A stretch of 64,000 nucleotides of DNA from Roseibacillus sp. (GCA_965242925.1 CBDEUM010000030.1:192001-256000), one strand, 5' to 3'; shown: positions 1,728 through 18,695, counted from the first letter of the stretch. Program-made: numbers and translations. Notes: generated by a model not told the origin, from the sequence alone.

Positions 1728-1977
1728 GAACTACGCCATCAGCTCTCGCAAGAGCTGTGCCCGGCTGACTCTCCATTTCTCCCAGTGCTCAAATTCAGAA
1801 ATCGGAGTGGACGAACTGCGGGAAACTCTCTTAGACGAGGCCGGGGACAGCGCTAGCCAGTTCAACGCTCTACGGGCCAAATTCGCACTCTCAGCGCCGA
1901 GGAACGCCGCACCCTGCTTCGCAACCGCCGAAATCGAGAGCTCCGATTGCGTCACTTTCCTTGTGCTCCAGGCCTTT
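1726..1977 (+). pseudogene. Degenerate tyrosine integrase fragment
   Basis: Clear nucleotide homology to 7586-7930 of the intact integrase (GAGAACTACGCCATCAGCT... to ...CTCCAGGCCTTT), with ~95 bp internal deletion and small indels. Confidence 0.85.
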
Positions 1978-2396
1978 CCTGATCACAAAAACATTTATTT
2001 GCCTGCGCGGACGCCAGATTGAAATCTCCGAATGATGATCAGAACCCTACGCGAGCGCGGACAGCACACCAATAACATGGAGAGGCTTCCTTTCTCTCAA
2101 CTGGCTGCCCGAATGCTAGGGCATGGAAACCTCGATCCGGTAGAACGATCATCGCAAGTCCCGGCCATTGCGGGCAAACGAGGTGAACCCCGTGCGGAGA
2201 TTCTGGAGTCAACACGGCGCGACCACTGCTTAAACTGTGGGGATTGAATCATCTGGGTTGCCGTTCTCTGCTGGTTCAGCGATCGCAAAAATCGTGCTGG
2301 CCTTGGGCAAATGAAGGTGATCTTCCCCAATTCATAGGGATGCGTCCCACCTTGATGTCTTGTTGGGGACAGAGTGGCACGGTAGAGTGGTGCCGC

Positions 2397-4739
2397 TTGA
2401 TTGATCCACCTGCTCATCTTCGATCTCTCACAATTCCCCTGCTGTCGATTGGAGTCTTACTCGGCGGATGGGTGACCGCGGCCCCCGATTTCGAGAAGGA
2501 GGTCAGGCCGGTCTTGCAGCAGTATTGCTTCAGTTGTCACGGTCCCGAAAAACAAAAGGGCAAGTTCCGTCTCGATACTTTGTCACCAGACCTTGTGAAA
2601 GAGCGGCGTGCAGCAGAGCATTGGCACGAAGTGCGGATCGCTCTCAATTTGGCAGAAATGCCGCCGAAAGAGAAACCTGCGCCCAACGATGCGGAGCGAA
2701 GAATAGTCTTGGCGTGGCTCGATGATGCGATCGCAAAAGCGAACGAAACGTTCCGCTCGACAGGAGGCCGCGTGGTGATGCGCCGGCTTAACAATGCAGA
2801 GTATCAGAACACGATGCGGGATCTCTTTGGCCTCGATGTGACCTATGCCCGCGATCTTCCGCCCGACGCTGTGTCACCGGAGGGGATGCGCAATAATGGC
2901 AGCGCGCTTCAAATGTCCGGATTGCAGTTCGATTACTATCTCAAGGCTGCCCGGGAGGCTCTCGATCGGGCCATTGTCACCGATTCGGCCCCGGAAGTCT
3001 TTGAGCACAGCTTTGAAAAGTCGACAGAAGAGCGTTGGATTGACGGGGTCCAGCCCTCCAACAGTATTGGCGACAAGCGCGAATTTCTCGTGCGAATCAA
3101 AGATCAGTATCCCGACCAGGGAGCTTTCCGAATCCGCATCCGCGCCAAAACGGTTATCGCGGAAGAAAAGAACGCGGTGCCCTACATGAAGGTGCATGTC
3201 GGTTACCGTCCGGACACCCTGGTGGATCGAGAGCTTCTCGGGGCACGGGTGCTCACTAACGAGGAGGCGCAGGACTTTGAGTTCGTCGGACAACTGGAGA
3301 ACTTTCCTCTGCCAGTTCGGAAACAGGGGAAGTTTCCCGGGTTGGTGATCTCGGTGACCAATGAGGGGGCCAATGTCGGGATCGAGTCGCTGGAATTCAA
3401 AGCTCCACTCTTCGATGCCTGGCCGCCGGAACATCATACGCGTATTCTCCACGACTCCGAGCTGAGAAAGACTGATGAGGGAGCATACGGTCGGGAGGTG
3501 ATTGCCCGGTTTTTGGCAAGGGCCTGGCGTCAGCCCGTGACCGAGAAGGAAATCGACCGCTTTCACAGGTTTTTCGGAAAAATACGGCCGGAAATGGCGA
3601 CCTTTGAAGAGGCCCTCAAGGAGTCCCTGGCAATGGCTCTGGTGTCCCCGGCATTTCTTTACATTTTGGAACCGGATTCTGCGAGCGCTAGAAATCTCAA
3701 TCCCTACGAACTGGCCTCTCGCCTGAGCTATTTCCTGTGGAGCACGATGCCGGATGCAGATCTGTTAGACGCGGCACGCATCGGAACATTGGGTCGGCAT
3801 GACGGCTTGAAGGGCCAGGTGAACCGCATGATCGCCGATTCCAGATGCGATCGCTTCATCGACCAATTCACCTCGCAGTGGCTGGATCTGGAAGCAGGTG
3901 ATCGCCTCGTGATCGATCAGAAAGCCTATCCCGGATTTCGACCCAGTCTGAAGGAGGAGATGCGGCTAGAGACGCAACACTTCTTTGGGGAGCTTCTGCG
4001 AAAGAATCTCAGTGCGCGTAATTTCCTTCAGTCCGATTTCGCGATGTTAAACGATCGAATGGCCCGGCACTATGGCATTGAGGGGGTGCGCGGGCGCAAC
4101 TTCCGGCGAGTGGCCCTCACGGGGGAGCGTGCGATGCGTCGCGGCGGCCTGTTGACGCACGCATCAATTCTATTAGGAACCTCTACCGGCGTGGATGCCC
4201 ATCTCATCAAGCGCGGAGTCTTTGTGCGGAAGCGCCTCTTGGGTGATCCCCCGGCGCCCCCGCCTCCGAATGTTCCGGAGTTGGAAACGGCGGACGAGGA
4301 GTTCGGCAGACTGCCCGTTCGCGAGCAATTGGAGAGGCATCTAAAGGACGCTGCTTGTGCGGACTGTCATCGAGGCATCGATCCCTGGGGTTACGCCCTG
4401 CAGGAGTTCGATGCGGTGGGAAAGTGGAGGAAAGAAGTGGTGCGACCGAATAACGGCAAGGACGGGGTTCCCTTGCCGGTGGATGCACGGGCGCAACTTC
4501 CCGACGGCCGAGAGGTCAATGGAATTCACGAATTAAGGGGCTACTTGCTGGAGCACCGGGAGGAACAATTTGCTCGCGCCCTTGTTTCCAAGTTGCTCAC
4601 CTATGCCCTCGGTCGCAGCTTGAAATTCTCTGATCAAAGCGTTATAGACATCCTGACCAAGGACTTTCTCAAGAATGACCTCCGACTAGCGGATTTAGTG
4701 GAAAGCATCGCTGTCAGTGTAATGTTTCAAACCAAGTAG
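2397..4739 (+). CDS. Planctomycete-type cytochrome c / DUF1587-DUF1595-DUF1592-DUF1588-DUF1585 protein
   Basis: CFSCH and CADCH heme motifs, RRLNNAEYQNT, ELASRLSYFLWSTMPD, RGGLLTHAS; start uncertain (ORF open from 2244). Confidence 0.9.
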   Translation: MIDPPAHLRSLTIPLLSIGVLLGGWVTAAPDFEKEVRPVLQQYCFSCHGPEKQKGKFRLDTLSPDLVKERRAAEHWHEVRIALNLAEMPPKEKPAPNDAERRIVLAWLDDAIAKANETFRSTGGRVVMRRLNNAEYQNTMRDLFGLDVTYARDLPPDAVSPEGMRNNGSALQMSGLQFDYYLKAAREALDRAIVTDSAPEVFEHSFEKSTEERWIDGVQPSNSIGDKREFLVRIKDQYPDQGAFRIRIRAKTVIAEEKNAVPYMKVHVGYRPDTLVDRELLGARVLTNEEAQDFEFVGQLENFPLPVRKQGKFPGLVISVTNEGANVGIESLEFKAPLFDAWPPEHHTRILHDSELRKTDEGAYGREVIARFLARAWRQPVTEKEIDRFHRFFGKIRPEMATFEEALKESLAMALVSPAFLYILEPDSASARNLNPYELASRLSYFLWSTMPDADLLDAARIGTLGRHDGLKGQVNRMIADSRCDRFIDQFTSQWLDLEAGDRLVIDQKAYPGFRPSLKEEMRLETQHFFGELLRKNLSARNFLQSDFAMLNDRMARHYGIEGVRGRNFRRVALTGERAMRRGGLLTHASILLGTSTGVDAHLIKRGVFVRKRLLGDPPAPPPPNVPELETADEEFGRLPVREQLERHLKDAACADCHRGIDPWGYALQEFDAVGKWRKEVVRPNNGKDGVPLPVDARAQLPDGREVNGIHELRGYLLEHREEQFARALVSKLLTYALGRSLKFSDQSVIDILTKDFLKNDLRLADLVESIAVSVMFQTK

Positions 4740-4760
4740 CCGTATCGTCCTGAGCCTATC

Positions 4761-6110
4761 ATGTCTTCCTCCCGACCTTGGCAACTGAATCGACGCACCT
4801 TCTTGCGTGGCGCGGGAGCCGCCTTGGCCTTGCCCACCTTGGAATGCATGGGAGCGCGGGCGCCAAAGGATGAGCCTCGTCGTCTGGCCGCGATCTATTT
4901 CCCCTTCGGAGTGTCGATGCCGCCTGGGGACAGCGGGAAGACGGAGTGGAGCTGGTTCCCCCAGACCGAAGGAGCCGACTACCTGTTCACACAGGCTCTC
5001 AAGCCGCTTGAGGCGCTGCGGAAGGACATCTCCATCCTTGGAGGACTTTCCCATCCTGAAGTGCGCAAGATCGGAGGACACGACAGCGGCGACACCTTTT
5101 TGACAGGGTGCGATCTCATCGGGCGCGATCTGCTCAACGTGCAGTCGATGGATCAGATCGCAGCGGAACAACTTTCCGATCAAACGCGCTTCTCCTCGCT
5201 CGTGATGTCGACGGACGGCGGAGTCGGTGAGCCCACCCGTTCGAGTACGCTTTCTTACAATCAGCACGGGCGGCCAATTCCTGCGCTCAATCAGCCACGT
5301 CAAATCTTTGAACGGTTCTTCGGAGCGGGCGATGACGCGACTCAACGGGGACGCCGACGCTTGCGCAGCGCGGCACACATGCTGGATCTGGTTCTGGAGG
5401 ATGCCAGCGAGGTGCGGCGCAAGCTTGGCAAAAACGACCGGGAAAAACTCGATGAGTATCTTGATTCAGTTCGCGATGTCGAAAAAAGAGTGGAGCGGTC
5501 TCAGGCATGGATGGACCTTCCCGGGCCGGAGTTGACCGACGCCGATCGGGAGCGCCTCAAATTGGATTCCGATTCCAAGGTGCCGGAGGATTACGTCGCA
5601 ACCATGTACGAGCTGATCTACCTGGCTTTCCGCACCGATTCGACGCGGGTGGCCACCTATCAGATCGGAAGCATGGGCGATGCCACCTCGCTGAGTGGCA
5701 AGTTCCCGCAATTGTTGGGTTTGGGCCCCAACCTGCATAGTCTCTGCCATGGTTGGAATAAGCCGGAAGGAATCGAGCCTCTGGGCAGGTGGGATCAGTT
5801 CCTCAGCCGCAAATTCGCGGAGTTCCTTACCCGGATGAAGGAAACACCGGCCAATGCCGAGGGCACCCTCAGCCTTCTCGACCAGACGTCGATCCTTTAC
5901 GGTAGCAGCAACAGCACTACCCACACGAACCTGAATTACCCGTTAGTGCTGGCCGGGGGAAAAGGGCTTGGCTTCCAACATGGATCGTATCACCGCTTCG
6001 ACCAATCGACACCCCTGGCAAACTTGCAGTTCACCATGTTGAAGCAGGCGGGCATTTCGGTGGAGTCCTTTGCAGGCAGTAACGGCCTGATGCAAGAGGT
6101 GCTCGGATAG
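4761..6110 (+). CDS. DUF1552 family protein (Tat-exported), usual partner of DUF1592 proteins
   Basis: NRRTFLRGAGAALALP Tat leader, SMDQIAA, KLDEYLDSVRDVEKR, PLVLAGG. Confidence 0.9.
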   Translation: MSSSRPWQLNRRTFLRGAGAALALPTLECMGARAPKDEPRRLAAIYFPFGVSMPPGDSGKTEWSWFPQTEGADYLFTQALKPLEALRKDISILGGLSHPEVRKIGGHDSGDTFLTGCDLIGRDLLNVQSMDQIAAEQLSDQTRFSSLVMSTDGGVGEPTRSSTLSYNQHGRPIPALNQPRQIFERFFGAGDDATQRGRRRLRSAAHMLDLVLEDASEVRRKLGKNDREKLDEYLDSVRDVEKRVERSQAWMDLPGPELTDADRERLKLDSDSKVPEDYVATMYELIYLAFRTDSTRVATYQIGSMGDATSLSGKFPQLLGLGPNLHSLCHGWNKPEGIEPLGRWDQFLSRKFAEFLTRMKETPANAEGTLSLLDQTSILYGSSNSTTHTNLNYPLVLAGGKGLGFQHGSYHRFDQSTPLANLQFTMLKQAGISVESFAGSNGLMQEVLG

Positions 6111-6317
6111 CCAGTAGTTCCGGTTGCGATGTGACGAGACCTGACCCGGTCGAGCGCTAACTCACCATCACCCCGCCACCGCTGGCTCTCTGATGTCCTT
6201 GCGACTCCTGCCAGTCAAGGGAGCACCGTTTCGACAAGCCGCCGCCCAATGACGTTTCCAGCACCGGGCCACCCCCTGCCCAGTGCCCGGGAAGCCTGTG
6301 CCAAGGGTCCGGGGATT

Positions 6318-6911
6318 TTAACGGTCGCGCGAATCACGCCCTTCTGGCCGTCCCCCGCGTCCTCGGCGGCCCCGGTCACCGAAACTTTTCATCCGCTCGC
6401 TCAGTGCCTCGATCATGGCGGCCTGTTCCGCATCGTCGAGTTGGCCGTCCCCATTGGTATCAACCTCGTCGAAACCACCGGAGAAGGGACCGGAAACTTC
6501 CTCCTTGGAAAGGAGGCCATCCCCATTCGTATCCCGTTCCTTCATGCGCGCGCTGATCTGCTCCGTGATACGGGCGAATCGTTCAGCCCGCTCCTCAGAC
6601 TCTCGTTCTTCCCGCCGCTCCGCTCGTTCCTCGGCGCTCCGGGGCAACGGAATCGACGGGTCCAGCTTGACGACGGGCTTGGGGGCTGCCGGAGGGGCCT
6701 CAGCCTCGGGAACAGCAGGATCTGGCGCCGGAATGGATCGTTCTGACGTTTCACCCCGGGGGGAAGATTTCCTGTTTCCTTCGGTCCGCGGGCGGGGAGG
6801 CCGATCCGAATTGAGGCTTTCCGAGTTTGCCGCAGCTTCGTCATCGCCGCAGGAAGTCAGCACGAATGCCCCGAAAACCATCGTCGAAAGAAAGACGTAA
6901 AACAGTTTCAT
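6318..6911 (-). CDS. EF-hand lipoprotein
   Basis: Lipobox LTSC; two EF-hand loops DTNGDGLLSKEE and DTNGDGQLDDAE; Pro/Arg-rich linker. Confidence 0.75.
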   Translation of the reverse strand: MKLFYVFLSTMVFGAFVLTSCGDDEAAANSESLNSDRPPRPRTEGNRKSSPRGETSERSIPAPDPAVPEAEAPPAAPKPVVKLDPSIPLPRSAEERAERREERESEERAERFARITEQISARMKERDTNGDGLLSKEEVSGPFSGGFDEVDTNGDGQLDDAEQAAMIEALSERMKSFGDRGRRGRGGRPEGRDSRDR

Positions 6912-6966
6912 AAGGCAACCTTGCTACTGCAGCGCCTCACTGCCGTCAATAAGTGAACCCGCAAAT

Positions 6967-7042
6967 CCCCGGATTATCGTAACCCGTTGAGCGCCAGTGG
7001 AGCCAATGGTCGGATTTGAACCGACGACCTGATCATTACGAA
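6967..7042 (-). repeat. att site: copy of the 3' half of tRNA-Thr plus 31 bp downstream
   Basis: 76-bp direct repeat of 16034-16109 with 1 mismatch; identity ends in the anticodon loop. Confidence 0.95.
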
Positions 7043-7125
7043 ACCAACGGGCTATTGGTAACTCATTAAGTGTCAACGCTTATTGCGGACGGTTTTTTGC
7101 GGTTTCCGGCGTTTCTTGTTGAATC

Positions 7126-7146
7126 TTTGGGCACCATTGGGCACCA
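7126..7146 (+). promoter_or_regulatory. Putative integrase arm-type binding sites (TGGGCACC x2)
   Basis: TTTGGGCACCATTGGGCACCA; same motif pair at 15995-16016 inside the other att. Confidence 0.65.
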
Positions 7147-7213
7147 AGGGAGGGTTAATCCGCAGCTCTCAACGGCGCCGTAAAGCCACCAAAAAACAAC
7201 ATTCTGACAGGCC

Positions 7214-8443
7214 ATGGCCCGTTACCCGCAATTCCAAGTCAAGCGCGTCCCTGGCAAGAGCACTCGCCGCTGGCAACTCACCATTCCAGCCACCCAGAGT
7301 GAAACCAGACAACGCCGCCGCCTCTATTTCAAGACCCGCGAAAAGGCGATGGCGGAGCGGGACCGGCGCCGGGCCGAGAAAGAGCAATTTGGTCGCCGGG
7401 CCCTCCACTGCGACCCGGGGCTGCGGGCCGAGGCGCTGAAGGCCACGGAGATACTCAAACCCCTCGGAGCCACCATTACCGAGGCGGTGCGGGAGTTCGT
7501 CGAGCGCAGGGAGCGGGCCAATGCCTCGCGGCCCTTCGGAGAGCTCTTCGCCGAGATTGCCGAGCAAAAGCAGCTCACCCGAAGCGAGAACTACGCCATC
7601 AGCTTCCGCAAGAGCTGCGCCCGGCTAACTCCCCATTTCTCCCAGCGCCCGATTTCAGAAATCACGGCGGACGAACTTCGGGATGCTCTCTCCCGGGAGG
7701 CCGGTAATAGCGCCAGCCAGTTCAATGCCCTGCGAGCCCATGCTTCTGTGGTCTGGGGGGTGGCAGCAAAACGCGGATGGGCCCCAAAGAACCTGACAGG
7801 CGCGGTCGATAAAATGGAGCGCAGGGCTGCCCCTATTCGCACTCTCACCGTCGAGGAACTGCGCACCCTGCTTGCAACCGCGGAAATAGAGAGCCCTGAT
7901 TGCGTCATTCCCATCGCCCTCCAGGCCTTTGCAGGCGTTCGAACCGAGGAATTGCGGCGTCTGCGCTGGGACTGCCTGGACTTGGAGGAGGGCGAAATGG
8001 CCCTCGACGAATCCATCACGAAAACAAACCACTACCGGGTCGTTTCGCTCCAGCCCAACCTTCTCGCCTGGATCAGGCGCTACGCCCCTGCCAAAGCCCA
8101 CCGTTGGGGGCCGCTTATCCCTGCTGACTGGAAGCGCAAGGCCACTCGCATTCGCAACCGGGCGGGTTGGGCCGTGGTCGATCTCAAAACTAAGGACAGC
8201 GCCGCTGCCCAGCCACCCGCAGAGGCACCTGCATGGCCTACCAATGCCCTAAGGAAGTCTTTTGGTTCAGCCCACCTGAAGGCCTTCGGCAGTCTGGATA
8301 CTACTATCACAGAGATGGGACATCATGGTGATCCACGTACGTTCTGGCGATTCTATCACAGGGGATATTCAAGACGGGAAGCCCTCGCCTACTGGCAAAG
8401 CGGACCAGGGGGCGAGGAGATCAAGTTCACGGTGGCGGCATGA
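7214..8443 (+). CDS. Tyrosine recombinase / phage integrase
   Basis: AGVRTEE (catalytic R), TK (K), NALRKS (HxxR variant), MGH, terminal FWRFY tyrosine; N-terminal arm-binding-like region. Confidence 0.92.
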   Translation: MARYPQFQVKRVPGKSTRRWQLTIPATQSETRQRRRLYFKTREKAMAERDRRRAEKEQFGRRALHCDPGLRAEALKATEILKPLGATITEAVREFVERRERANASRPFGELFAEIAEQKQLTRSENYAISFRKSCARLTPHFSQRPISEITADELRDALSREAGNSASQFNALRAHASVVWGVAAKRGWAPKNLTGAVDKMERRAAPIRTLTVEELRTLLATAEIESPDCVIPIALQAFAGVRTEELRRLRWDCLDLEEGEMALDESITKTNHYRVVSLQPNLLAWIRRYAPAKAHRWGPLIPADWKRKATRIRNRAGWAVVDLKTKDSAAAQPPAEAPAWPTNALRKSFGSAHLKAFGSLDTTITEMGHHGDPRTFWRFYHRGYSRREALAYWQSGPGGEEIKFTVAA

Positions 8444-8952
8444 ATGAGGCAGATGAGGGAAAGCGACCGTCTATCGCCGATCTGCACGACTTGCTTTGTC
8501 ACTACGGCGGACGCGTAGTCCTTCATCATGAGAGCGGGACACCATGGACTTTCGCGGCCCCCCGCGGCGAGATGCAGGAGGCAGTGAATCGCTATCTGGG
8601 CTCCCAGAAAGATTCGCCGGACCAGGAGGCAGCAGCAAGGGATCTCGGACGTTGGGTTGAGCTGATACTTTTGGAAGGAAAGGAGAACGCGCGATCGGAA
8701 CTTTGCTATCTTGCATTACGCCTCGGAAAAGACGTTGAGAAAGGGCCAACCAAACAAGCCGAAGTCGTTGGCAAGGTCATGGAATTCGTGTGGGACCGAC
8801 GGGAGAAGGAGCTTTCCACAGGAGCGTTAACGGCCGCGTTGCCACACATTGGGGAAAGCACCATCCGAGAGGTCCTCGCAGAGATTGGGAAGCGAGGAAT
8901 CCTCACAATCGACGACCGTGAGAAGTGGGGAAAGGGATCTCCAGAAAAATAA
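8440..8952 (+). CDS. Hypothetical protein, possible C-terminal winged-helix
   Basis: ATGA overlap with the integrase stop; LSTGALTAALPHIGESTIREVLAEIGKRGIL resembles a wHTH. Confidence 0.55.
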   Translation: MNEADEGKRPSIADLHDLLCHYGGRVVLHHESGTPWTFAAPRGEMQEAVNRYLGSQKDSPDQEAAARDLGRWVELILLEGKENARSELCYLALRLGKDVEKGPTKQAEVVGKVMEFVWDRREKELSTGALTAALPHIGESTIREVLAEIGKRGILTIDDREKWGKGSPEK

Positions 8953-9005
8953 AAAAGTTCCGGAGATAGGTGCACCCCGGAGGGAATCGAATAAGACCCC
9001 TGGGA

Positions 9006-9227
9006 ATGGCTACAAATGAAACTACACCGAAGGCCGTCGGTCCGGAAGAGGTGGCGATCTTTCTATCGCTGTTCCTCCCTGACGGAAGACCGAACCGCGA
9101 AAAGGTTCTCAAACTCGTGCGACAGGGGAAAATTCCCTGCGTACGATTTTCCAACAAGGTGATCCGCTTCTATCTCGATGAAGTGGAAGCGGCCACCCGC
9201 GGCAGAAAGGAGGAGGCGCGTGGGTAA
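9006..9227 (+). CDS. Excisionase-like (MerR/HTH_17-type) DNA-binding protein
   Basis: 73 aa, EEVAIFL...VLKLVRQGKIPCVRFSNKVIRFYLDEV; positioned after the integrase. Confidence 0.75.
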   Translation: MATNETTPKAVGPEEVAIFLSLFLPDGRPNREKVLKLVRQGKIPCVRFSNKVIRFYLDEVEAATRGRKEEARG

Positions 9228-9639
9228 TATCAACGACATTTTCGCCGGCGACTACCTTCGCGCTGAGGACCTTCCCGCCGGCCGACCGGTGTGGGTGGAG
9301 ATCAGGAGCGTCGATGTCCGCCACTTCCCGGACGGAGCAAAGCTGGAACTAGCTTTCAAGGACAAGCGGAAACACTTCCTGGCAAACATGACCAATTCTC
9401 GAATCATCGCTGACCTCTACGGGGGCGAGACTGACGATTGGATCGAAAGGATGATTGGGCTGTACTCCACCAAGGTTGAGTTCCAGGGCCGGATGGTGCC
9501 TTGCATCCGCGTGAAGCCGCCCGAGAGCGTCCGCCACCGGGACGAACGGCCATTGGTGGATCCAGAACCGCCGATGAAGGATTCCCGTGCAGTATTGCGG
9601 AGCTATTCGGCCGACGACGAGGAGGAATTGCCTTTCTGA
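9220..9639 (+). CDS. Phage-type ssDNA-binding-like protein with acidic tail
   Basis: GTG start with AGGAGGAGG RBS; DYLRAEDL...NMTNSRIIADLYG..W pattern seen in phage proteins; ends DDEEELPF like SSB C-termini. Confidence 0.6.
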   Translation: MGNINDIFAGDYLRAEDLPAGRPVWVEIRSVDVRHFPDGAKLELAFKDKRKHFLANMTNSRIIADLYGGETDDWIERMIGLYSTKVEFQGRMVPCIRVKPPESVRHRDERPLVDPEPPMKDSRAVLRSYSADDEEELPF

Positions 9640-9642
9640 CAG

Positions 9643-9819
9643 ATGAAGTCTGGAAAGAGAACACCCGCGGTGGCAGCCGCGGGTAAAGTGAAGACCAGTG
9701 CTGAGAGGCAAATGATCAACGAGGTGACTCTAATAGCCCGCGGACCAGAATTCAAGTGCAGTGTATTCTGTGCGGTTTCTGGCATGAGGACAGGCACTGG
9801 AGAGCTTGGGTTTCTCTAA
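9643..9819 (+). CDS. Small hypothetical protein (58 aa)
   Basis: ATG..TAA ORF filling the gap between the ssb-like and rep genes; contains hairpin CCCGCGG-N6-CCGCGGG. Confidence 0.35.
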   Translation: MKSGKRTPAVAAAGKVKTSAERQMINEVTLIARGPEFKCSVFCAVSGMRTGTGELGFL

Positions 9820-9837
9820 TTTGAGGAAGGAGGCATT

Positions 9838-10611
9838 TTGAGCATTCCAGCTTTGAACTGGGCCAAGGAAGACTGCAAGGCTCGCGGTTCCTTGCGGGGA
9901 ATCATCATGGTGCTTGCTGACCATGCCTCTCCAAAACCCACCCAGGGAACCGGGGATTTTCATGTCTGCTGGACGGGGCAGAAAACAATAGCCAGAGAGT
10001 CCGGATGGTCCGTGAGGTGCGTTGAGGACAACATTCCCAAACTAGCCAAGCACGACATCAAGGTTCTTCCCAGGCGGGTGCCAACGCCAAACGGAGCATG
10101 CAACCTTTACGTCTTTCCAATCAGTGATTCCCTAGAGGTTCCCACGGCATACGTGGAAACTGACGAGAAGGTTCCCACATCTGGTGCTGAGGTTCCCACG
10201 ACTCGCACGGAGGTTCCCACATCTCACGCAGAAGTTCCCACGGGTCCTGCGGGTAAACCCAAACCTAAACCCAAAGAGGAACCAGAATTAAAACCCAGTC
10301 CATCCAGCGAGCGAGCTACTGCTGAAGACGTTAATCTTCTTTGTAAGGAAACCACAGAAGGGGTTCTCTGGAAAGATGCGGGGGTTGGGCCGGGTTCGGC
10401 ATGTACGCTCAATGATCTATTTCTTAAAATCCAGACCTTGAAGAACCTGCTCCCTGAGCAGCGATGCAGAGCGCACCAAATCGCTCGCAAGGTCTGGGCG
10501 GACACTGATGGCGGCAAGCACCTCAGCGGCAAGCCTGTGAGGGACCTACAGGCAGTCCTGATGACCCGGCTCCAGAGTGAAGGTGTGATTAAGAAGAAGC
10601 GGAGGAAATGA
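9838..10611 (+). CDS. Phage-type replication initiator (N-terminal HTH, lambda O-like architecture)
   Basis: TTG with strong RBS; MSIPALNWA...LADHA...CWTGQKTIARESGWSVRCV matches HTH_36-like initiators; internal repeats encode EVPT. Confidence 0.75.
   Translation: MSIPALNWAKEDCKARGSLRGIIMVLADHASPKPTQGTGDFHVCWTGQKTIARESGWSVRCVEDNIPKLAKHDIKVLPRRVPTPNGACNLYVFPISDSLEVPTAYVETDEKVPTSGAEVPTTRTEVPTSHAEVPTGPAGKPKPKPKEEPELKPSPSSERATAEDVNLLCKETTEGVLWKDAGVGPGSACTLNDLFLKIQTLKNLLPEQRCRAHQIARKVWADTDGGKHLSGKPVRDLQAVLMTRLQSEGVIKKKRRK
10135..10241 (+). repeat. Iteron array, putative origin of the element
   Basis: GTTCCCAC at 10138, 10171, 10192, 10213, 10234 (spacing 33,21,21,21), followed by an A-rich tract. 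Confidence 0.7.
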
Positions 10612-10871
10612 CACAATCCACGCGGATTTTGGCAGGTCATTATCTGACAGGAGGCACGTGGAATAAGTGGTGGTTCCTTGTTTTGGAATGGCCCATGAAA
10701 TTCTCCCCCCATGCCCCCCGCATCGCACCCTCGATTGCGGCCGGTAGGGTTCCCATTGCCTCAGATTTGGGCCCGGCCCGCTGGTGAACGTCACGGGATT
10801 ACGGCCCTGAGGAATACCTTGGCGGCATTGGAGGCTACTGGGGCGGCCGGAACTGTCAGTAACTCGCGGCG

Positions 10872-13800
10872 TTACGGCGTTCCTTCGGGAACATCGGTCA
10901 CCCAGGGATAGAGGCTGAAGCGGTAACGATAGATCGCGGCCTCGCTGTCACGAGCCAGAGTAGACCCGATTTGTAGTCCCTCGCTGGTGAGCCAATTCGC
11001 GTTCAAACCGCCGTAGTTGGCACCAATAGTAACCCAGGCGCGATCCTCACCCGCGGTGCTACGCTGAAGCTCCACCATCACGTCCGGCGGCAGACCTGCG
11101 AGATCGACAGCCTGAACGAGAACGTCCGAATCGGTGACCCCCACCGAAAAAGGAATGCGGGGAGCGCTGTCGGGATCGAGCGGATCCCGGTCGAAGATAT
11201 ATTCCAACAGGTTCACGTTACCATCGCGATCCGGATCGGACAACGCTCCACTAATTGCGAGATCGTCAAGCTGAGCTTGGTCGAACGTCCGCGCCCGCCA
11301 GGTTGCCATTGGGCTCATGAGGTCCAACCGAATGGGCAGGCGGAAAAACTTGTCCGGTTCCAATGTGGGAGAAAATTCGACGACAAAACGATCCGACCCG
11401 ACCAGCGGCACGGTAACTTTATCGGGTGCGTCGGAATAAGTGGCTTGCCAACTGTCAACCAAGCGCAGCAGCGTTATGGTTCCACTGGCCGGTTCTTCCA
11501 CTACCGTGACCGAGAAATAGGGTGGAATCGGCAAAGAAAAGTGCTCTGTTGCAGGCAGTCCAGCAGTTATGGGAGGCTGGAGTGTTCCACGTAAACTGGT
11601 TGCCCATATATAAAACTTGATTGGGTTCGACACGCCGGCCTCGGTGGTCACCTGGTAACTGAGAGAAGTGACTCCCGTAAAATCGGGAGTGGGGTGAAAA
11701 CGAAAATCTCCCGTCTGAGGATCAACATCGAGGACAGTTCCCTCGGCCTGCGAATCATCGACGACCAGATCGAGGATCTCCCGGTAGGGAGCCCCATTTT
11801 CATCAAACAATCCGTCGTTGCTGTACAGGTTGTGGTGAAGCGTACTTGTATCAAAGATGGTAGTAGGATCCGCAACAAACCAGTCCGGTTCCCCGGCGAC
11901 CCTGGTCGAGCCAGGACCCACCTCGATAGCCACCACCGCTTCCTCCATTCTGACCAGCTGGAGGCTGTCCAGTTGGAAGCCCAGGTCTGAGCTGCTGGGT
12001 GTTATCGGGTTGAGGCCGTTGTGCAGGGAAATCGCCAGACAGTGATTTCCAGCAGAGAGTTCGACTTGATCCACGTTGACGACATGCTCGGCAGTTTCTT
12101 CTGGCCCTCCGGCCCAGGCCTCAGCAGTTCCTTCCGCCATGAGGAAGTAGCCGTCGGGCGCGGTCAACGCCACATGGACACCGGGCTCGAAGGAGCGAAA
12201 GAGCTCCTCGCCATCGAGGTAGGCAATCACGCCGTCATCCCGGCGTATCCGGGCCTCCAGCCGATAAATGCCCGACTCGGCAACCGGGAACATCGCACGC
12301 AGATAGGCTGTATAGCGCCGTTCAGGTTCGGGAAGGCCGAGGTTTATGTCGGGAGCTAAACCGCTCCCTGGTTCGGGAACTAAATTCCCGAGCACACCGT
12401 ATCCTATGGAGCCACCTTGCGCCCGGAGCCACGTTCGGGGCACGTCAAATCCGAGGGTGTTCCACTCCTCATCGAACCCCGGAGTATCCAGCCCGGGGGG
12501 ACGGCCGTCGAGGGGATTGAACGCTCGCCACGTCGATCGAACGTTCAGCACTGGGACCGGTTCACCGAGTTCCACAGCGTAGCTGAAGAGTTCCGTGCCA
12601 ATAAAATTCCGATGCGGTCGATAGCTGAAGGTTCCATCCGGGTTGAAGGTCAGATCCCCGTGCTCGGGGTCACGAGTCACCCAGACTTCACCCGGTAGCG
12701 GATCCGGCAGTCCCGCGTCATTCTGAAGCACACCCGGATGCACCAGCCCATCGGCAACAAGCGTTCTTCCCTGGGCCATGGCATAACCGTCGTCGGCAAG
12801 GTTGGTAACGGGGACGCTACCTGCGTCATTCGGGTCAGATCCTTCCACGATTTCATCCCCGTCATTAAAGCCGTCTCCATCTGTATCTGAGTCATTGGGA
12901 TTGGTGCCATGGACTACAATCTCCTGGTAGTTGGTCAGCCCGTCCCCGTCCGGGTCCCGGCCGTCCCGGTCAAAGTCCGCTCCCACCGTTTGGTTCTCGT
13001 CCATCATAGTCAGGCTGAGCGGGTTATCGGTGCCGGTGGCGTCCCCGGTCCAACCGGTGAAGAGATAGCCGGGGTCAGGGATGGCAGTGAGCGTGGCGCT
13101 GGTGCCGGGGAGGTAGGTTCCAGCACCTCTGATAGTGCCATTTTGTGAATTGCCAATGGCCAGTATCGCGAAAATATGAAGCGGATAAACCCTCACGTGC
13201 CCGGCATTGTCGCCATTTCCATTGTTACCTTCCGCCCCAATAGCCACCCGGTTACCATCAGCACTAAGAGAGACACTCCAACCGCTATAATCGCCAGCGG
13301 CCTCGCCATCGATATCCTGTCCAAGTTGGATCCACGTGTTTCCAGATAATTCATAAATGCGCACGTGCCCGGCAAGGGTGCCATTTCCATCGTTGCCGGG
13401 CGCCCCAATAGCCACCCGGTTACCATCCGCACTAAGAGAGACACTCCAGCCGCTCCCATCGTCAGCGGCCTCGCCCTCGATATCCTGTCCAAGTTGGATC
13501 CACGTGTTGCCAGATAACTCATAGATGCGTACGTGCCCGGGAAGCGCCGAGGGAGACCGGCCCCATCGTTGGGGCGCCCCAATAGCCACCCGGTTACCAT
13601 CAGCACTAAGAGAGACACTATGGCCGCTCTGGTCGTCAGCAGCCTCGCCATCGATATCCTGTCCAAGTTGGATCCACGTGTTGCCAGATAACTCGTAGAT
13701 GCGTACGTGTCCGGCATTGGTGCCATTTTCATCGTTCCAAGGCGCCCCAATAGCCACCCGGTTACCATCAGCACTAAGAGAGACACTATAGCCGCTATCG

Positions 13801-14408
13801 TCGCCAGCGGTCTCGCCATCGATATCCGATCCAAGTTTGATCCAACTGCGTCCAGATAACTCATAGATGCGCACGTGCCCGGCTCGGTCGCCATTTCCAT
13901 CGTTACCGTACGCCCCAATAGCCACCCGGTTACCATCAGCACTAAGAGAGACACTATAGCCGCTAAGGTCGCCAACGGCCTCGCCATCGATATCCTGTCC
14001 AAGTTGGATCCACGTGTTGCCAGATAACTCGTAGATGCGTACGTGCCCGGCATCGGAGCCATTTCCATCGTTGCCGGGCGCCCCAATAGCCACCCGGTTG
14101 CCATCAGCACTAAGAGAGACACGATAGCCGCTCCCATCGTCAGCGGCCTCGCCCTCGATATCCTGTCCAAGTTGGATCCACGTGTTGCCAGATAACTCAT
14201 AGAGGCGTACGTGCCCGGCATCGGAGCCATTTCCATCGTTCCAAGGCGCCCCAATAGCCACCCGGTTGCCATCAGCACTAAGAGAGACACTCTCGCCGCT
14301 CCAATCGCCAGCGGCCTCACCATCGATATCCTGTCCGAGCTGACTTTGCGCTGCGGCACCCTGCACCAAGCAAAGGATCGCAGCCAAAAGTAGGACAATT
14401 GTTTTCAT
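10872..14408 (-). CDS. Large secreted protein: 7 FG-GAP-like propeller blades, InlB B-repeat-like, TSP3-like Ca-binding, two Big_9/cadherin-like and a jelly-roll domain
   Basis: Signal peptide; 7 x ~56-aa repeats QLGQDIDGEAAGDxSGxSVSLSADGNRVAIGAxxNDGNGxxAGHVRIYE; DPDGDGLTNxQE..GTNPNDSDTDGDG; PEHGDLTFNPDGTFSYRP. Confidence 0.85.
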   Translation of the reverse strand: MKTIVLLLAAILCLVQGAAAQSQLGQDIDGEAAGDWSGESVSLSADGNRVAIGAPWNDGNGSDAGHVRLYELSGNTWIQLGQDIEGEAADDGSGYRVSLSADGNRVAIGAPGNDGNGSDAGHVRIYELSGNTWIQLGQDIDGEAVGDLSGYSVSLSADGNRVAIGAYGNDGNGDRAGHVRIYELSGRSWIKLGSDIDGETAGDDSGYSVSLSADGNRVAIGAPWNDENGTNAGHVRIYELSGNTWIQLGQDIDGEAADDQSGHSVSLSADGNRVAIGAPQRWGRSPSALPGHVRIYELSGNTWIQLGQDIEGEAADDGSGWSVSLSADGNRVAIGAPGNDGNGTLAGHVRIYELSGNTWIQLGQDIDGEAAGDYSGWSVSLSADGNRVAIGAEGNNGNGDNAGHVRVYPLHIFAILAIGNSQNGTIRGAGTYLPGTSATLTAIPDPGYLFTGWTGDATGTDNPLSLTMMDENQTVGADFDRDGRDPDGDGLTNYQEIVVHGTNPNDSDTDGDGFNDGDEIVEGSDPNDAGSVPVTNLADDGYAMAQGRTLVADGLVHPGVLQNDAGLPDPLPGEVWVTRDPEHGDLTFNPDGTFSYRPHRNFIGTELFSYAVELGEPVPVLNVRSTWRAFNPLDGRPPGLDTPGFDEEWNTLGFDVPRTWLRAQGGSIGYGVLGNLVPEPGSGLAPDINLGLPEPERRYTAYLRAMFPVAESGIYRLEARIRRDDGVIAYLDGEELFRSFEPGVHVALTAPDGYFLMAEGTAEAWAGGPEETAEHVVNVDQVELSAGNHCLAISLHNGLNPITPSSSDLGFQLDSLQLVRMEEAVVAIEVGPGSTRVAGEPDWFVADPTTIFDTSTLHHNLYSNDGLFDENGAPYREILDLVVDDSQAEGTVLDVDPQTGDFRFHPTPDFTGVTSLSYQVTTEAGVSNPIKFYIWATSLRGTLQPPITAGLPATEHFSLPIPPYFSVTVVEEPASGTITLLRLVDSWQATYSDAPDKVTVPLVGSDRFVVEFSPTLEPDKFFRLPIRLDLMSPMATWRARTFDQAQLDDLAISGALSDPDRDGNVNLLEYIFDRDPLDPDSAPRIPFSVGVTDSDVLVQAVDLAGLPPDVMVELQRSTAGEDRAWVTIGANYGGLNANWLTSEGLQIGSTLARDSEAAIYRYRFSLYPWVTDVPEGTP

Positions 14409-14420
14409 AGCACCGTGACT

Positions 14421-15912
14421 CTACTCCTCCACGACGCGCAGGAACCATCTGGGTCTTGCAGACGGGTTGAAGGAATAGGAGCGTTGGATGATGTCGCCGG
14501 TACCGGTGATGCCCGCTTCCTCGACGCTCCAGTCCCGCAGGTTGGAGGAACTCTCGATCCGGTAGGGCTTACCGCTCTCGGCGGTGAATCCAAGGCTCAG
14601 GGCGTAGAGTTGACCCGGTCGCACGATGAATGTTTCCAACGTCAGATCGAGTGTCAGCGTTTCATCGCCTGGAAGCTGATAAACCCTCACGTGCCCGGCA
14701 CCGCCGCCATTTCCATCGTTATAGATCGCCCCAATAGCCACCCGGGTACCATCAGCACTAAGAGAGACACTATAGCCGCTATCGTCGCCAGCGGTCTCGC
14801 CATCGATATCCGATCCAAGTTTGATCCAACTGCGTCCAGATAACTCATAGATGCGCACGTGCCCGGCACCGCCGCCATTTCCATCGTTAGAGGGCGCCCC
14901 AATAGCCACCCGGTTACCATCAGCACTAAGAGAGACACTATAGCCGCTAAGGTCGCCAGCGGCCTCGCCATCGATATCCTGTCCAAGTTGGATCCACGTG
15001 TTTCCAGATAACTCGTAGATGCGTACGTGCCCGCCACCGCCGCCATTTCCATCGTTTCCTTCCGCCCCAATAGCCACCCGGTTACCATCAGCACTAAGAG
15101 AGACACTATAGCCGCTAAGGTCGCCAGCGGCCTCGCCATCGATATCCTGTCCAAGTTGCATGCTCCCGCGTCTAGATAACTCATAGATGCGTACGTGCCC
15201 GGCATGGAGGCCATTCCCACGGTTATAGGGCGCCCCAATAGCCACCCGGTTACCATCAGCACTAAGGGAGATACTCATGCCGCTCTGGTCGTAAGCGTTC
15301 TCGCCATCAATATCCTGTCCAAGTTGGATCCACCCGCGTCTAGATAACTCATAGATGCGTACGTGCCCGGCATCGGGGCCATTTCCATCGTTCCGGAACG
15401 CCCCAATAGCCACCCGGTTACCATCAGCACTAAGAGAGACACGATAGCCGCTCTGGTCGCCACCGGCCTCGCCATCGATATCCTGTCCAAGTTGGATCCA
15501 CGTGTTTCCAGATAACTCGTAGATGCGCACGTGCCCGACATGTGCCACCGTTCCTGATCGCCCCAATAGCCACCCGGTTACCATCAGCACTAAGAGAGAC
15601 ACTATAGCCGCTCCCATCGTCAGCGGCCTCGCCATCGATATCCTGTCCGAGCTGCACCCAACTGTTTCCAGATAACCCGTAGATGCGTACGTGCCCGGCA
15701 CTGGAGCCATTTTCATCGTTCCGGGGCGCCCCAATAGCCACCCGGTTGCCATCAGCACTAAGAGAGACACTCCTGCCGCTACTGTCGCCAGCGGCCTCGC
15801 CATCGATATCCTGTCCAAGCTGACTTTGCGCTGCGGCACCCTGCACCAAGCAAAGGATCGCAGCCAAAAGCAGGACGCGTGTAAGAAATGTTGCCCTAGC
15901 CGTTCCGGTCAC
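14421..15912 (-). CDS. Secreted 7-blade FG-GAP-like propeller protein, frameshifted near 15540-15560
   Basis: ORF 15430-15912 gives the signal peptide and blades 1-2; ORF 14421-15839 gives blades 3-7 and the C-terminal domain; blade 2 loop is 22 nt rather than 27 nt. Confidence 0.8.
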
Positions 15913-15994
15913 AAGAAGTCCATTAACACTTTCGACACAGGGGTAGCAAAACCTAGCGGTGCAAATTTAGGGCAGGAACGCCAATTCCTTGTTT

Positions 15995-16016: not shown

Positions 16017-16064
16017 GCCAGAAGCGGCCGGACCCCCGGATTCTCGTAACCCGTTGAGCGCCAG

Positions 16065-16139
16065 TGGAGCCAATGGTCGGATTTGAACCGACGACCTGAT
16101 CATTACGAATGACCTGCTCTACCCCTGAGCTACATTGGC
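16065..16139 (-). tRNA. tRNA-Thr(CGT)
   Basis: GCCAATGTAGCTCAGGGGTAGAGCAGGTCATTCGTAATGATCAGGTCGTCGGTTCAAATCCGACCATTGGCTCCA: full cloverleaf, anticodon CGT, encoded CCA. Confidence 0.97.
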
Positions 16140-17187: not shown

Positions 17188-18695
17188 ATGAATACAATCG
17201 ACCTCATCTCACCTCTCGCTCAAGCCGGCAGCGGCGGCACCTTCCTGCTAATCGGGATTGTTTCCCTCATCGTTGTGGGCCTCGGAACGCTCGTTTTTTT
17301 CTTTTCACGATACAAGCGCTGTCCCTCGGACCGGATCCTCGTGATCTACGGTAAGACCAAGGGCGGAGGATCCTCCAAGTGTATCCATGGGGGGGCGGCA
17401 TTCGTTGTGCCCCTGTTCCAGGACTTCCAGTTTCTTGATCTCACCCCCATCCCCATTGACATCAAGCTCGAGGGGGCACTTTCCAAGCAGAACATCCGGG
17501 TCACTACCCCCTCCACCTTCACCGTCGGCATCTCCACTGAGCGGGCGTGATGGAGAACGCGGCCGAACGTCTATTGGGGCTCGACCTCAACCAGATCCGA
17601 CTCCTTGGGCAGGATATCATCTTCGGACAGATGCGGGTGGTCATTGCCACCATGGACATTGAGTCCATCAACGCCGACCGTGACCTCCTGATCGAGAAGA
17701 TCACCGCCGGGGTGGAGGTCGAACTGACCAAGATCGGCCTGGGCCTGATCAACGTGAATATCCAGGACGTTACCGACGAGTCCGGTTACATCGAGGCCCT
17801 TGGAAAGGAGGCCGCCGCGCGGGCCATCAATGAGGCCAAGATCAGTGTGGCCCAACAGGAGCGGGATGGTGAGATCGGTAAGAATAACGCCGAACGGGAG
17901 CAGCGCGTGCAGGTCGCTGCCGCCCAGGCAACGGCTGTCGAGGGGGAGAATGTCGCCAAGATCAAGGTGGCGCAATCGGACGCGGCTCGGCGCGAGCGGG
18001 AAGCCGAGGCGGAACGCCTGGCAGGAGCTGCCGAGAAGGTCAAGGCCGCTCAGGCCCTGGAGGAGGCTTACGGATCCGAGCAGAAGGCCGAGAGCGCCCG
18101 TGCCCTGCGGGAGAGGGCCACCCAGCATGCCAACATCGTGATCCCCGCCGAGATCGAGAAGTCCAAGATCGAAACCCTGGCCGAGGCTGAGGCCGAGCAA
18201 ACCCGTCGACTCAAGAAGGGCGAGGCCGACGGCATCCAGTTCGTGATGGAGGCCGAGGCCCGGGGAACCCTCGCCACCCTGCAGAGCAAGGCCCAGGGCT
18301 TCGGGGACATCGTCAAGGCTTCCGGAGGGGGAGCCGATGACGCCACCCTGCTCCTTGTCACCGAACAGTTGCCCGCCCTCATCGAGGAACAGGTGAAGGC
18401 CATTGCCAATCTCAAGATTGACTCCGTCACGGTGTGGGATTCGGGCGGAAAGGGAAAAAACGGGAAGAATGATACCGCGGAATTTGTCTCTGGTCTCGTG
18501 GGGGCATTACCCCCGTTGCATCAGCTCACCCGGAACGTTGGAATCGAGTTGCCTGAGTTCCTGGGCAAACTGACCGATAACCCCGACGAAGCAGCCCGGA
18601 TCATTAAGAAGGCCAAGCAGGTGCCGCCCCCGGAGGCCCCGTTAGAGGTGGTGGAGGACCGCACTGACGATGGGGAGACCCTCGAAACGGAATAA
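17188..18695 (+). CDS. Flotillin/SPFH family protein, split by a 1-nt frameshift near 17541
   Basis: RYKRCPSDRILVIYG..CIHGGAAFV.P in the first ORF; NAAERLLGL..IIFGQMR and AEA-rich coiled coil in the second. Confidence 0.88.

Follow-up and report, generated by a model that had tools for sequence, protein, structure and literature searches.

Mosaic and hypervariable integrin-type propellers encoded on a tRNA-linked island of a Roseibacillus genome

Two tandem propeller genes

The stretch of DNA analysed here, a 64,000-nucleotide window of a Roseibacillus sp. draft genome (GCA_965242925.1 CBDEUM010000030.1:192001-256000), carries between positions 10,872 and 15,912 two tandem minus-strand genes, A and B, which encode seven-bladed FG-GAP_2 β-propellers behind signal peptides. 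The blades are near-identical mosaics of one another that vary at the same six codons, and the genes sit between the borders of an integrase island. The locus is a new instance of the known class of highly repetitive propellers, with concerted evolution and diversifying selection combined. The features of the two genes, with open reading frames abbreviated as ORFs, are the following.

10872-14408, minus strand: gene A, an intact ORF of 1178 aa with signal peptide, FG-GAP_2 propeller, Flg_new_2, TSP3_bac, Big_9/cadherin-like domains and a long C-terminal region
13190-14339, minus strand: propeller of gene A, blades A1-A7 (starts 14339, 14171, 14003, 13835, 13667, 13493 and 13325)
13535-13575, minus strand: aberrant 2-3 loop of blade A5, in the alignment 2 nt lost and then 8 nt gained (net +6), read as PQRWGRSPSALPG
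13763-13883, minus strand: exact tract of 121 bp, where the end of A3 and start of A4 equal the end of B6 and start of B7 (14747-14867), out of register
14338-14390, minus strand: exact tract of 53 bp of signal-peptide DNA, equal to 15818-15870
14421-15912, minus strand: gene B, a frameshifted paralogue (ORFs 15430-15912 and 14421-15839, in different frames) with signal peptide, blades B1-B7 and an 85-aa C-terminal β-sandwich
15533-15559, minus strand: frameshift site of gene B in the 2-3 loop of B2, 8 nt shorter than in regular blades (unit of 160 rather than 168 nt)

Gene A matches FG-GAP_2 of Pfam in six stretches (9.3e-33; 112.6 bits against a cut-off of 23) and also Flg_new_2, TSP3_bac, Big_9 and Cadherin_5, the propeller being only the first ~400 residues of a multidomain protein of 1178. 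The Atlas matches of residues 620-1178 are all Verrucomicrobiota clusters with cadherin/Big_9 domains (best score 0.90), which is no more than a lead towards placing this C-terminal part among Verrucomicrobiota cadherin/Ig-like proteins. Gene B lies 12 nt upstream of gene A, its blades starting at 15819, 15651, 15491, 15323, 15155, 14987 and 14819. Both of its pieces match FG-GAP_2 (71.7 and 38.6 bits in Pfam), and its frame is broken because the 2-3 loop of B2 is 8 nt short. The 85-aa C-terminal domain of gene B has no Pfam match even at an E-value of 5; its model, built from a five-sequence alignment, has six strands and a predicted local distance difference test (pLDDT) score of 73.2, and finds only generic β-sandwich fold matches (E >= 0.014). 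A domain of this size, ending in RV(V/E)EE, recurs at the extreme C-terminus of several large secreted proteins of the lineage, with copies at 14424-14693 of the window and at L017:3952-4218, L024:6564-6830 and 6890-7156, and L008:489-755; it could serve as a lineage-specific sorting or anchoring domain.

Tandem Repeats Finder reports two arrays of period 168, at 13195-14336 (6.8 copies, 85% matches, score 1596) and at 14689-15819 (6.8 copies, 85% matches, score 1525). When blades are delimited by anchoring on the DNA that encodes LGQDIDG, the two genes resolve into 14 units, 12 of exactly 168 nt, with B2 at 160 nt and A5 at 174 nt. An earlier reading of this DNA, made from the sequence only, had proposed 14 repeats of about 168 bp and identical blocks of 121 and 53 bp; the repeats are as it described, and both identities are exact and maximal, extending no further at either end. 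Its claim of a core nearly invariant even at synonymous sites holds in part. A core of 44 bp is exact in 11 of the 14 aligned blades and off by 1-2 nt in the other three, but synonymous divergence (dS) across 32 framework codons is 0.173. The two propeller genes with their 14 blades are likewise present as proposed, although the upstream one is frame-broken in blade 2, and this break and the aberrant +6-nt loop in one blade of gene A had both gone unnoticed. The two blades of 14 with out-of-frame indels, A5 and B2, carry them in the same place, the 2-3 loop; the remaining 12, here called regular, have a median protein identity of 77.7% (range 64-93%). A templated origin of the odd A5 loop was considered and rejected, since the 23-mer of its insert occurs once in the genome and nowhere else in it.

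Blade exchange and the six variable codons

The two halves of a single blade often have different closest relatives. B7 is 98.9% identical to A4 in its first half and closest to B6 and A7 in its second; A4 in turn matches B7 in its first half and A1 in its second, and B5 equals B6 over codons 1-31 and diverges thereafter. Pairing the 16 informative biallelic sites of the framework gives 120 combinations, of which 51 fail the four-gamete test. Exact tracts of at least 70 nt number three (121, 96 and 78 bp), one between the genes and one inside each, and every one of them crosses a blade border. Discordant half-blades, four-gamete failures and border-crossing tracts together substantiate the exchange of DNA among blades, within and between genes, that had been read from the sequence. 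They bear directly on the standard account of highly repetitive propellers, as the available text of Pereira and Lupas (2022; PMC9218822) has it, by which a one-off recent amplification from a single blade would be followed by neutral drift of the loops, with neither continuing recombination nor selection for diversity. Blades that are 64-93% identical in protein (median 78%), and loops that tolerate indels, are what such an amplification predicts. However, mosaic blades and this many four-gamete failures within a unit of 168 nt need exchange or much recurrent mutation, and the out-of-register identical tracts link one gene to the other.

Variation among the blades clusters in two loops, as the sequence-only reading had it. 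The variable codons of the 56-codon blade are 13, 16, 32, 33, 39 and 40, each with 6-8 codon types among the 14 blades, often 2-3 bases apart; other codons mostly have one or two types. The swapping of loop cassettes had been put forward as the source of this diversity, and the mosaic blades agree with it as far as they go. Yet the 12 regular blades of the window hold 9 loop types at each of three loop segments, and only one full six-residue signature is common to the window blades and the 18 regular blades of a closely related contig. Loop diversity is thus not explained by cassette shuffling alone, and substitution under selection at the six codons is also needed.

The substitution rates point the same way. 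At the six hypervariable codons the proportion of non-synonymous differences (pN) is 0.63 and the corresponding rate (dN) 1.35, which is saturated, against a framework dN of 0.024 and the dS given above (Nei-Gojobori, 32 codons), the latter owed to a few dimorphic sites. Among 41 different blades from the lineage, nucleotide diversity at codon positions 1 and 2 is 0.61 in the hypervariable codons and 0.028 in the framework. The case for selection is made with Nei-Gojobori counts. The excess of dN reflects either favoured amino-acid change or continual homogenisation of the framework with diversity protected at the six codons, and both routes amount to selection for diversity. Loss of constraint alone is rejected because unconstrained sites cannot outrun synonymous sites, and neutral drift of the loops after a single amplification meets the same objection, the hypervariable dN of 1.35 exceeding the framework dS of 0.17.

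Changes so extremely localised, with codons differing by several bases, raised third-position diversity in the hypervariable codons and indels in the same loop, might instead be the work of targeted hypermutation by a diversity-generating retroelement or another mutator, in place of selection. We consider this extremely improbable. The variable codons differ at all bases and not only at template-adenine sites. Codon 39 has an almost fixed third base (diversity 0.05 in the 41 blades) while its first two bases vary (0.61 and 0.56), which indicates selection on the residue rather than a local mutator. The genome holds no template copy of the A5 insert elsewhere, and the genome, at 89.9% completeness, gives 0 matches to RVT_1 in a reverse transcriptase search that is positive in 3 of 14 genomes. 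A diversity-generating retroelement in particular was rejected, with no reverse transcriptase and the wrong pattern of codon change.

Fold of the propeller and its relatives

An AlphaFold2 model of gene A residues 1-406, made with an 80-sequence alignment, gives a propeller of seven four-stranded blades (28 strands; pLDDT 92.8, predicted template modelling score 0.91) preceded by an N-terminal helix at residues 2-17. Its sole weak stretch is the odd A5 loop (pLDDT 59 at residues 281-290). Among the Foldseek matches listed, every row is an integrin α-subunit chain (best E 1.3e-18), and structural alignment with VIA-align is best to 3v4p_A (Z 37.4, rmsd 3.0 Å over 354 residues), the best nine integrin chains falling at Z 35-37 and rmsd 3.0-3.1 Å over 341-359 residues. 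These integrin relatives are found by fold comparison only, as phmmer returns no match of the propeller to Protein Data Bank sequences at E <= 0.01.

Within each blade DSSP assigns strand 1 to SVSL, strand 2 to RVAIGA, strand 3 to GHVRIYEL and strand 4 to TWIQ. In every blade codons 13 and 16 fall at the end of the long 4-1 connection, before strand 1, codons 32 and 33 directly after strand 2, and codons 39 and 40 immediately ahead of strand 3. Both of these connections, 4-1 and 2-3, are found at one end of the sheet when four antiparallel strands form a meander, so that six positions in each of seven blades should face one side. By the strand order of the model, some 42 variable residues should therefore share one face, in agreement with the sequence-only reading. 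At the six positions, in the 41 distinct lineage blades, Tyr, Trp, Arg, Gly, Ser and Asp are abundant, a composition typical of binding sites. Particular loops of the integrin propeller are assigned to a ligand-contacting face. In the integrins it is the top side of the propeller that carries the ligand-contacting loops (available text of PMC11480402), and the six positions would lie on the matching face. The loop between strands 1 and 2 reads S-A-D-G-N-R in 13 of the 14 blades and S-A-D-G-T-R in B7; the DxDxDG-type cation motif of integrin α and VCBS blades is not kept here, its acidic ligand positions being replaced.

The propeller belongs to a very large family, with at least 7,949 members among 8,000 scored candidates at E <= 1e-10. 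Identities across phyla are 46-85%, and include flavobacterial proteins with type IX secretion system (T9SS) sorting domains and proteins labelled algal. Ten viral contigs, three giant-virus bins among them, encode relatives at 34-65% identity. The consensus of the 80-sequence family alignment is blank at exactly the six positions. Within single proteins, examined in the 36 of 120 listed that have at least 5 blades fitting a strict 56-residue pattern (84 were dropped as non-fitting), the non-majority fraction at the six positions is 0.42-0.60, and positions 25, 26, 46 and 48-53 vary from one protein to another (0.44-0.72) with little change inside each. The hypervariable pattern is a property of the propeller family across phyla, not of the window locus. 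That the same six positions vary within proteins across phyla is a further difficulty for neutral drift, and the one-off amplification seems to us quite unlikely.

Closer to the window, relatives are sparse. The locus is the only match in its own genome; 12 of 41 genomes (this one, G000, and 40 relatives) have a match, within the genus 4 of 19. A same-genus homologue in G010 has at least 8 blades, whose codon usage differs and whose variable positions coincide with those found here. A core of 36 nt has no match in the scanned genome contigs, a scan from which the own genome was perhaps excluded, and is present in 11 distinct metagenome contigs (15 rows), several of them alleles of a larger two-propeller gene. 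The framework consensus of the window blades differs from these metagenome relatives at 3-6 of 150 nt; Flg_new_2/TSP3 DNA is 83.5-85.6% identical, and the chromosomal flanks 89-90.5%. Three metagenome alleles differ from one another by 0.7-1.0% in non-repeat DNA, 1.3-3.6% in the framework and 2.9-8.2% at the hypervariable codons, and where loops are replaced they copy another blade of the same gene. Blade 6 in three metagenome contigs reads AEGNDGTGSS, ADENDENGSD or AHWNDENGSD.

Three proteins encoded on one 34-kb contig, P0001, P0012 and P0039, are very close to the window genes apart from their propellers: in its C-terminal domain P0039 matches gene B at 84 of 84 residues, and the Flg_new_2/TSP3 stretch of P0012 differs from gene A by 2 residues and one gap over ~89. 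Yet hypervariable residues of the same blade index agree in no more than 7 of 36 cases between gene B and P0039, near the all-against-all level of 17%, and in 4 of 36 between gene A and P0001. In P0012 the end of a signal peptide (LVQGAAAQSQ) and a second propeller come directly after a TSP3 module, a junction within the stretch that corresponds to the identical 53-bp leader block of the window. This leader DNA may itself be where recombination takes place, or else a place of misassembly.

The larger two-propeller gene has features of its own. Blade 3 of its first propeller carries a much longer, acidic 2-3 loop (DTGTGDGGNDDWRDDVPDSG) that is without the SG motif. As this loop is kept in all five alleles (L015, L016, L017, L018 and L023), blade 3 appears to be a fixed, specialised blade amid variable ones. 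The second propeller of the related gene has 7 blades in L017 and 4 in L020, where short-read collapse is possible. On L024, a 240-kb metagenome contig, a gene at 6887-10904 has a gene-B-like leader and promoter region 88% identical to 15193-15974 of the window. It adjoins a tRNA-Asn and has only four blades, the first and third identical in protein; after them come leucine-rich repeats in an array and numerous Flg_new_2/TSP3 modules. The locus is either another tRNA-linked island or a collapsed assembly.

Such forms raise the question of partial assembly artefact, by which collapsed or chimeric repeats would have made the identical tracts, the frameshift of gene B and the odd A5 loop. The genome is a draft of 42 contigs with a second apparent frameshift in a flotillin gene nearby, and the four-blade propellers of L020 and L024 and the signal-peptide remnant after TSP3 in P0012 are implausible as real proteins. 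We nevertheless regard such an artefact as unlikely. The same repeats, with their hypervariable positions and core DNA, are found in 11 independent metagenome contigs and thousands of proteins, both arrays have exactly seven blades, which close into a confident propeller, and a deficit of 8 nt with altered bases is unlike the typical homopolymer error. The flotillin/SPFH gene in question (17188-18695) is split into ORFs 17188-17550 and 17547-18695 with an apparent frameshift near 17545, and is either a second pseudogene or a sign of assembly indel errors.

The island, the selected reading and known systems

The two propeller genes are enclosed, together with an integrase, by a pair of direct repeats at a tRNA gene.

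6967-7042, unstranded: left att copy, a direct repeat of 76 nt made up of the 3' part of tRNA-Thr and the 31 nt that follow it, 99% identical to 16034-16109
7214-8443, plus strand: tyrosine integrase (Pfam Phage_integrase 2.8e-11 and Phage_int_M; PHROG phrog_1 4e-28)
8440-9639, plus strand: two small island ORFs (8440-8952 and 9178-9639) with no Pfam match, 9178-9639 matching the function-unknown family phrog_21613 (1e-07)
9838-10611, plus strand: replication-initiation O-like gene (PHROG phrog_1032 4.6e-06, phrog_391 8.2e-05) with internal 21-bp iteron-like repeats
16034-16109, unstranded: right att copy, which includes the last 45 nt (3' end) of the tRNA
16065-16139, minus strand: tRNA-Thr (CGU), the integration target (ARAGORN)

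The att repeats have one mismatch over 76 nt and duplicate the 3' 45 nt of tRNA-Thr; two exact copies of their 33-nt core are present in the window, where 0 are expected. They bound an island of 9.07 kb with the integrase, the two small ORFs, the O-like gene and both propeller genes. In all four same-genus regions fetched, chosen from the 19 same-genus genomes that match the tRNA and right flank, the site is empty, with tRNA-Thr directly beside the orthologue of the peptidase gene at 492-1727. The att repeats, the integrase and this empty site support the placing of the propeller genes on a mobile element, as the sequence had suggested, and their carriage as island cargo helps explain the patchy distribution. 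Iteron-like 21-bp repeats at 10135-10242 within the O-like gene have the core AGGTTCCCAC and form families D5 and D6 spaced 21 nt apart. The origin of phage lambda lies inside its O gene in a similar arrangement, and the 9-kb island may replicate after excision. Relative to the four same-genus genomes, a further insertion of ~5.2 kb (1728-6966) separates the peptidase gene from the left att copy and contains a PSCyt/PSD gene, a DUF1552 gene and a small ORF; no third att copy bounding it was found in the window.

A broken paralogue 12 nt upstream of an intact gene invites comparison with the pilS/pilE and vls systems, which vary by gene conversion from cassettes. The frameshifted gene B might be a silent donor of blades for gene conversion into the expressed gene A, with frequent switching of the binding face inside a clonal population. 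The 121-bp out-of-register tract and the identical 53-bp leader do connect the two genes, and the blades are mosaics. We judge such programmed variation very unlikely. Gene B still has a start, a signal peptide and a complete domain layout of its own, and so looks like a decayed paralogue and not a promoterless store of cassettes. Intact single-copy members in other phyla are hypervariable alike with no donor copy, three related alleles from different samples keep most of their loops, the genome, at 89.9% completeness, yields no reverse transcriptase, and the island ORFs show no recombination-specific element. By analogy with pilS or vls, the island itself might be a device for blade-cassette variation acting through the 168-bp frameworks and the 53-bp leader and spread by its integrase, which strikes us as just as improbable. 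No dedicated diversification machinery was found, the island ORFs giving no hint of a special recombinase beyond the integrase and the locus none of a dedicated recombinase target. The suggestion in the sequence-only reading that this is a diversification system is not supported: besides the missing recombinase target and reverse transcriptase, the pattern is family-wide and the metagenome alleles keep most loops.

The reading we favour, and hold to be probable as a whole, is one of secreted integrin-type propellers with blade conversion and six selected positions per blade, carried as island cargo. Both genes would encode Sec-secreted modular proteins of the surface or extracellular space, each with an N-terminal head that is predicted to be a seven-bladed integrin-α-type (FG-GAP_2) β-propeller of the highly repetitive kind. 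Recent amplification would keep the blades near-identical in DNA, together with unequal recombination or gene conversion that is still under way inside either gene, from one gene to the other and from allele to allele. At the same time selection for amino-acid diversity would drive six positions per blade apart, the outcome being a single composite binding face of ~42 variable residues on a fixed scaffold. Gene B would already have decayed by frameshift in the indel-prone 2-3 loop. We infer the binding function, the agent of selection and conversion that is still going on, with a surface molecule of another cell or virus as the putative ligand.

Several observations weigh against this reading, or limit it. 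Third-position diversity is itself raised in the hypervariable codons (0.40 against 0.13 in the framework), and, with out-of-frame loop indels in 2 of 14 blades, a locally raised mutation rate at these codons may have contributed. The framework dS may have been lowered by conversion, and the ratio of ~8 is thus not a clean omega. Most loops are identical in the three related metagenome alleles, from which it follows that turnover is not fast and belongs to an evolutionary timescale rather than to any rapid switch. The comparison with P0001, P0012 and P0039 was of proteins only, without synonymous calibration, and the variable residues were assigned to a face from strand order and not from coordinates. 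Lastly, with a draft genome of 42 contigs and 89.9% completeness, in which the nearby flotillin gene also looks frameshifted, the frameshift of gene B and the exact order of the blades could include assembly error.

If the favoured reading is true, secreted integrin-like propellers would form a very large family common to marine bacteria, their phages, giant viruses and some algae. Its members would be natural libraries of binders on a rigid seven-fold scaffold, with ~42 fast-evolving positions on one face and carriage on islands, and candidates for strain-level recognition of other cells, hosts and viruses in the ocean. They would also offer protein engineering a scaffold comparable to repeat-protein binders. 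The window locus is one instance of a widespread phenomenon whose general type has already been described, with no sign of special machinery.

The nearest class is that of the highly repetitive propellers catalogued by Pereira and Lupas (2022; PMC9218822), among which FG-GAP/α-integrin members make up 2%. As far as its available text goes, that work describes them as often disrupted by frameshifts and near a protein terminus, suggests a short-lived usefulness in recognition, and attributes the pattern to single blades that were amplified time and again; that text contains none of the terms recombination, gene conversion and hypervariab. As in that class, blades within a propeller of the window are far more alike than blades between lineages, with little synonymous change. 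The median blade identity of 77.7% lies above the 60% that marks the class, and synonymous differences are scarce to judge from the core (exact in 11 of 14 blades), though the framework dS is 0.173. Unlike the account given there (PMC9218822, available text), the window genes show mosaic blades and six saturated codons. A literature search found no published description of hypervariable or diversifying FG-GAP propellers. The seven FG-GAP blades are shared with the propeller of the integrin α-subunit (3v4p_A, 4um8_A), from which the window proteins differ in sequence (~20% identity), in the lack of a β subunit and membrane anchor, in the SADGNR loop and in the near-identity of their blades.

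FG-GAP adhesion proteins are reported, in the available text of PMC13620141, to be over-represented on the genomic islands of giant viruses and bacteria and to be passed from one such island to another, and FG-GAP surface-adhesion proteins to occur in giant-virus and phage genomic islands, including those of the prasinovirus MntV1 (PMC13620141 and PMC11467894, likewise in part). The domain family, its place on mobile or hypervariable islands and transfer between bacteria and viruses are, on those texts, common to both cases. Those reports concern virus genomes and attachment to hosts, whereas the window holds a bacterial (Verrucomicrobiota-like) chromosomal island whose proteins have Sec signal peptides.

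Among repeat proteins more broadly, the repeat-variable diresidues of transcription activator-like (TAL) effectors and the variable lymphocyte receptors (VLRs) of lampreys combine a near-identical DNA framework with a few specificity residues per repeat in recombined arrays. Both are solenoids, unlike the closed propeller here, and TAL effectors recognise DNA one base at a time. The somatic assembly of VLRs depends on a deaminase-driven process, of which there is no sign at this locus. The VLR analogy drawn from the sequence gives way to a closer likeness, to the highly internally conserved WD40 repeats of fungal nucleotide-binding leucine-rich-repeat-type (NLR) genes (available text of PMC1805685). 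In Podospora the WD40 repeats of het-d, het-e and nwd undergo concerted evolution within and between loci, with reshuffling and pseudogenised copies, and positive diversifying selection acts on a small number of residues in each repeat, at the interaction surface (Paoletti, Saupe and Clave 2007, PMC1805685, in the part available). The fungal proteins are cytoplasmic receptors of the signal-transducing STAND/NLR type with a WD40 fold, and repeat-induced point mutation (RIP) is a possible mutator there; those of the window are secreted, bacterial and of FG-GAP_2 fold, with adhesin-type domains, no NTPase domain and an integrative island as carrier. Later NLR studies (PMC4986451, PMC12222747, PMC13449251) reportedly address the high internal conservation of the repeats. 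In their evolution the two nonetheless resemble each other closely: as in het-e and nwd, the window genes evolve in concert, to judge by mosaic blades, tracts shared between genes and positions that are fixed within proteins and differ from protein to protein, and six codons change faster than synonymous sites, with a dN of 1.35 against a framework dS of 0.173.

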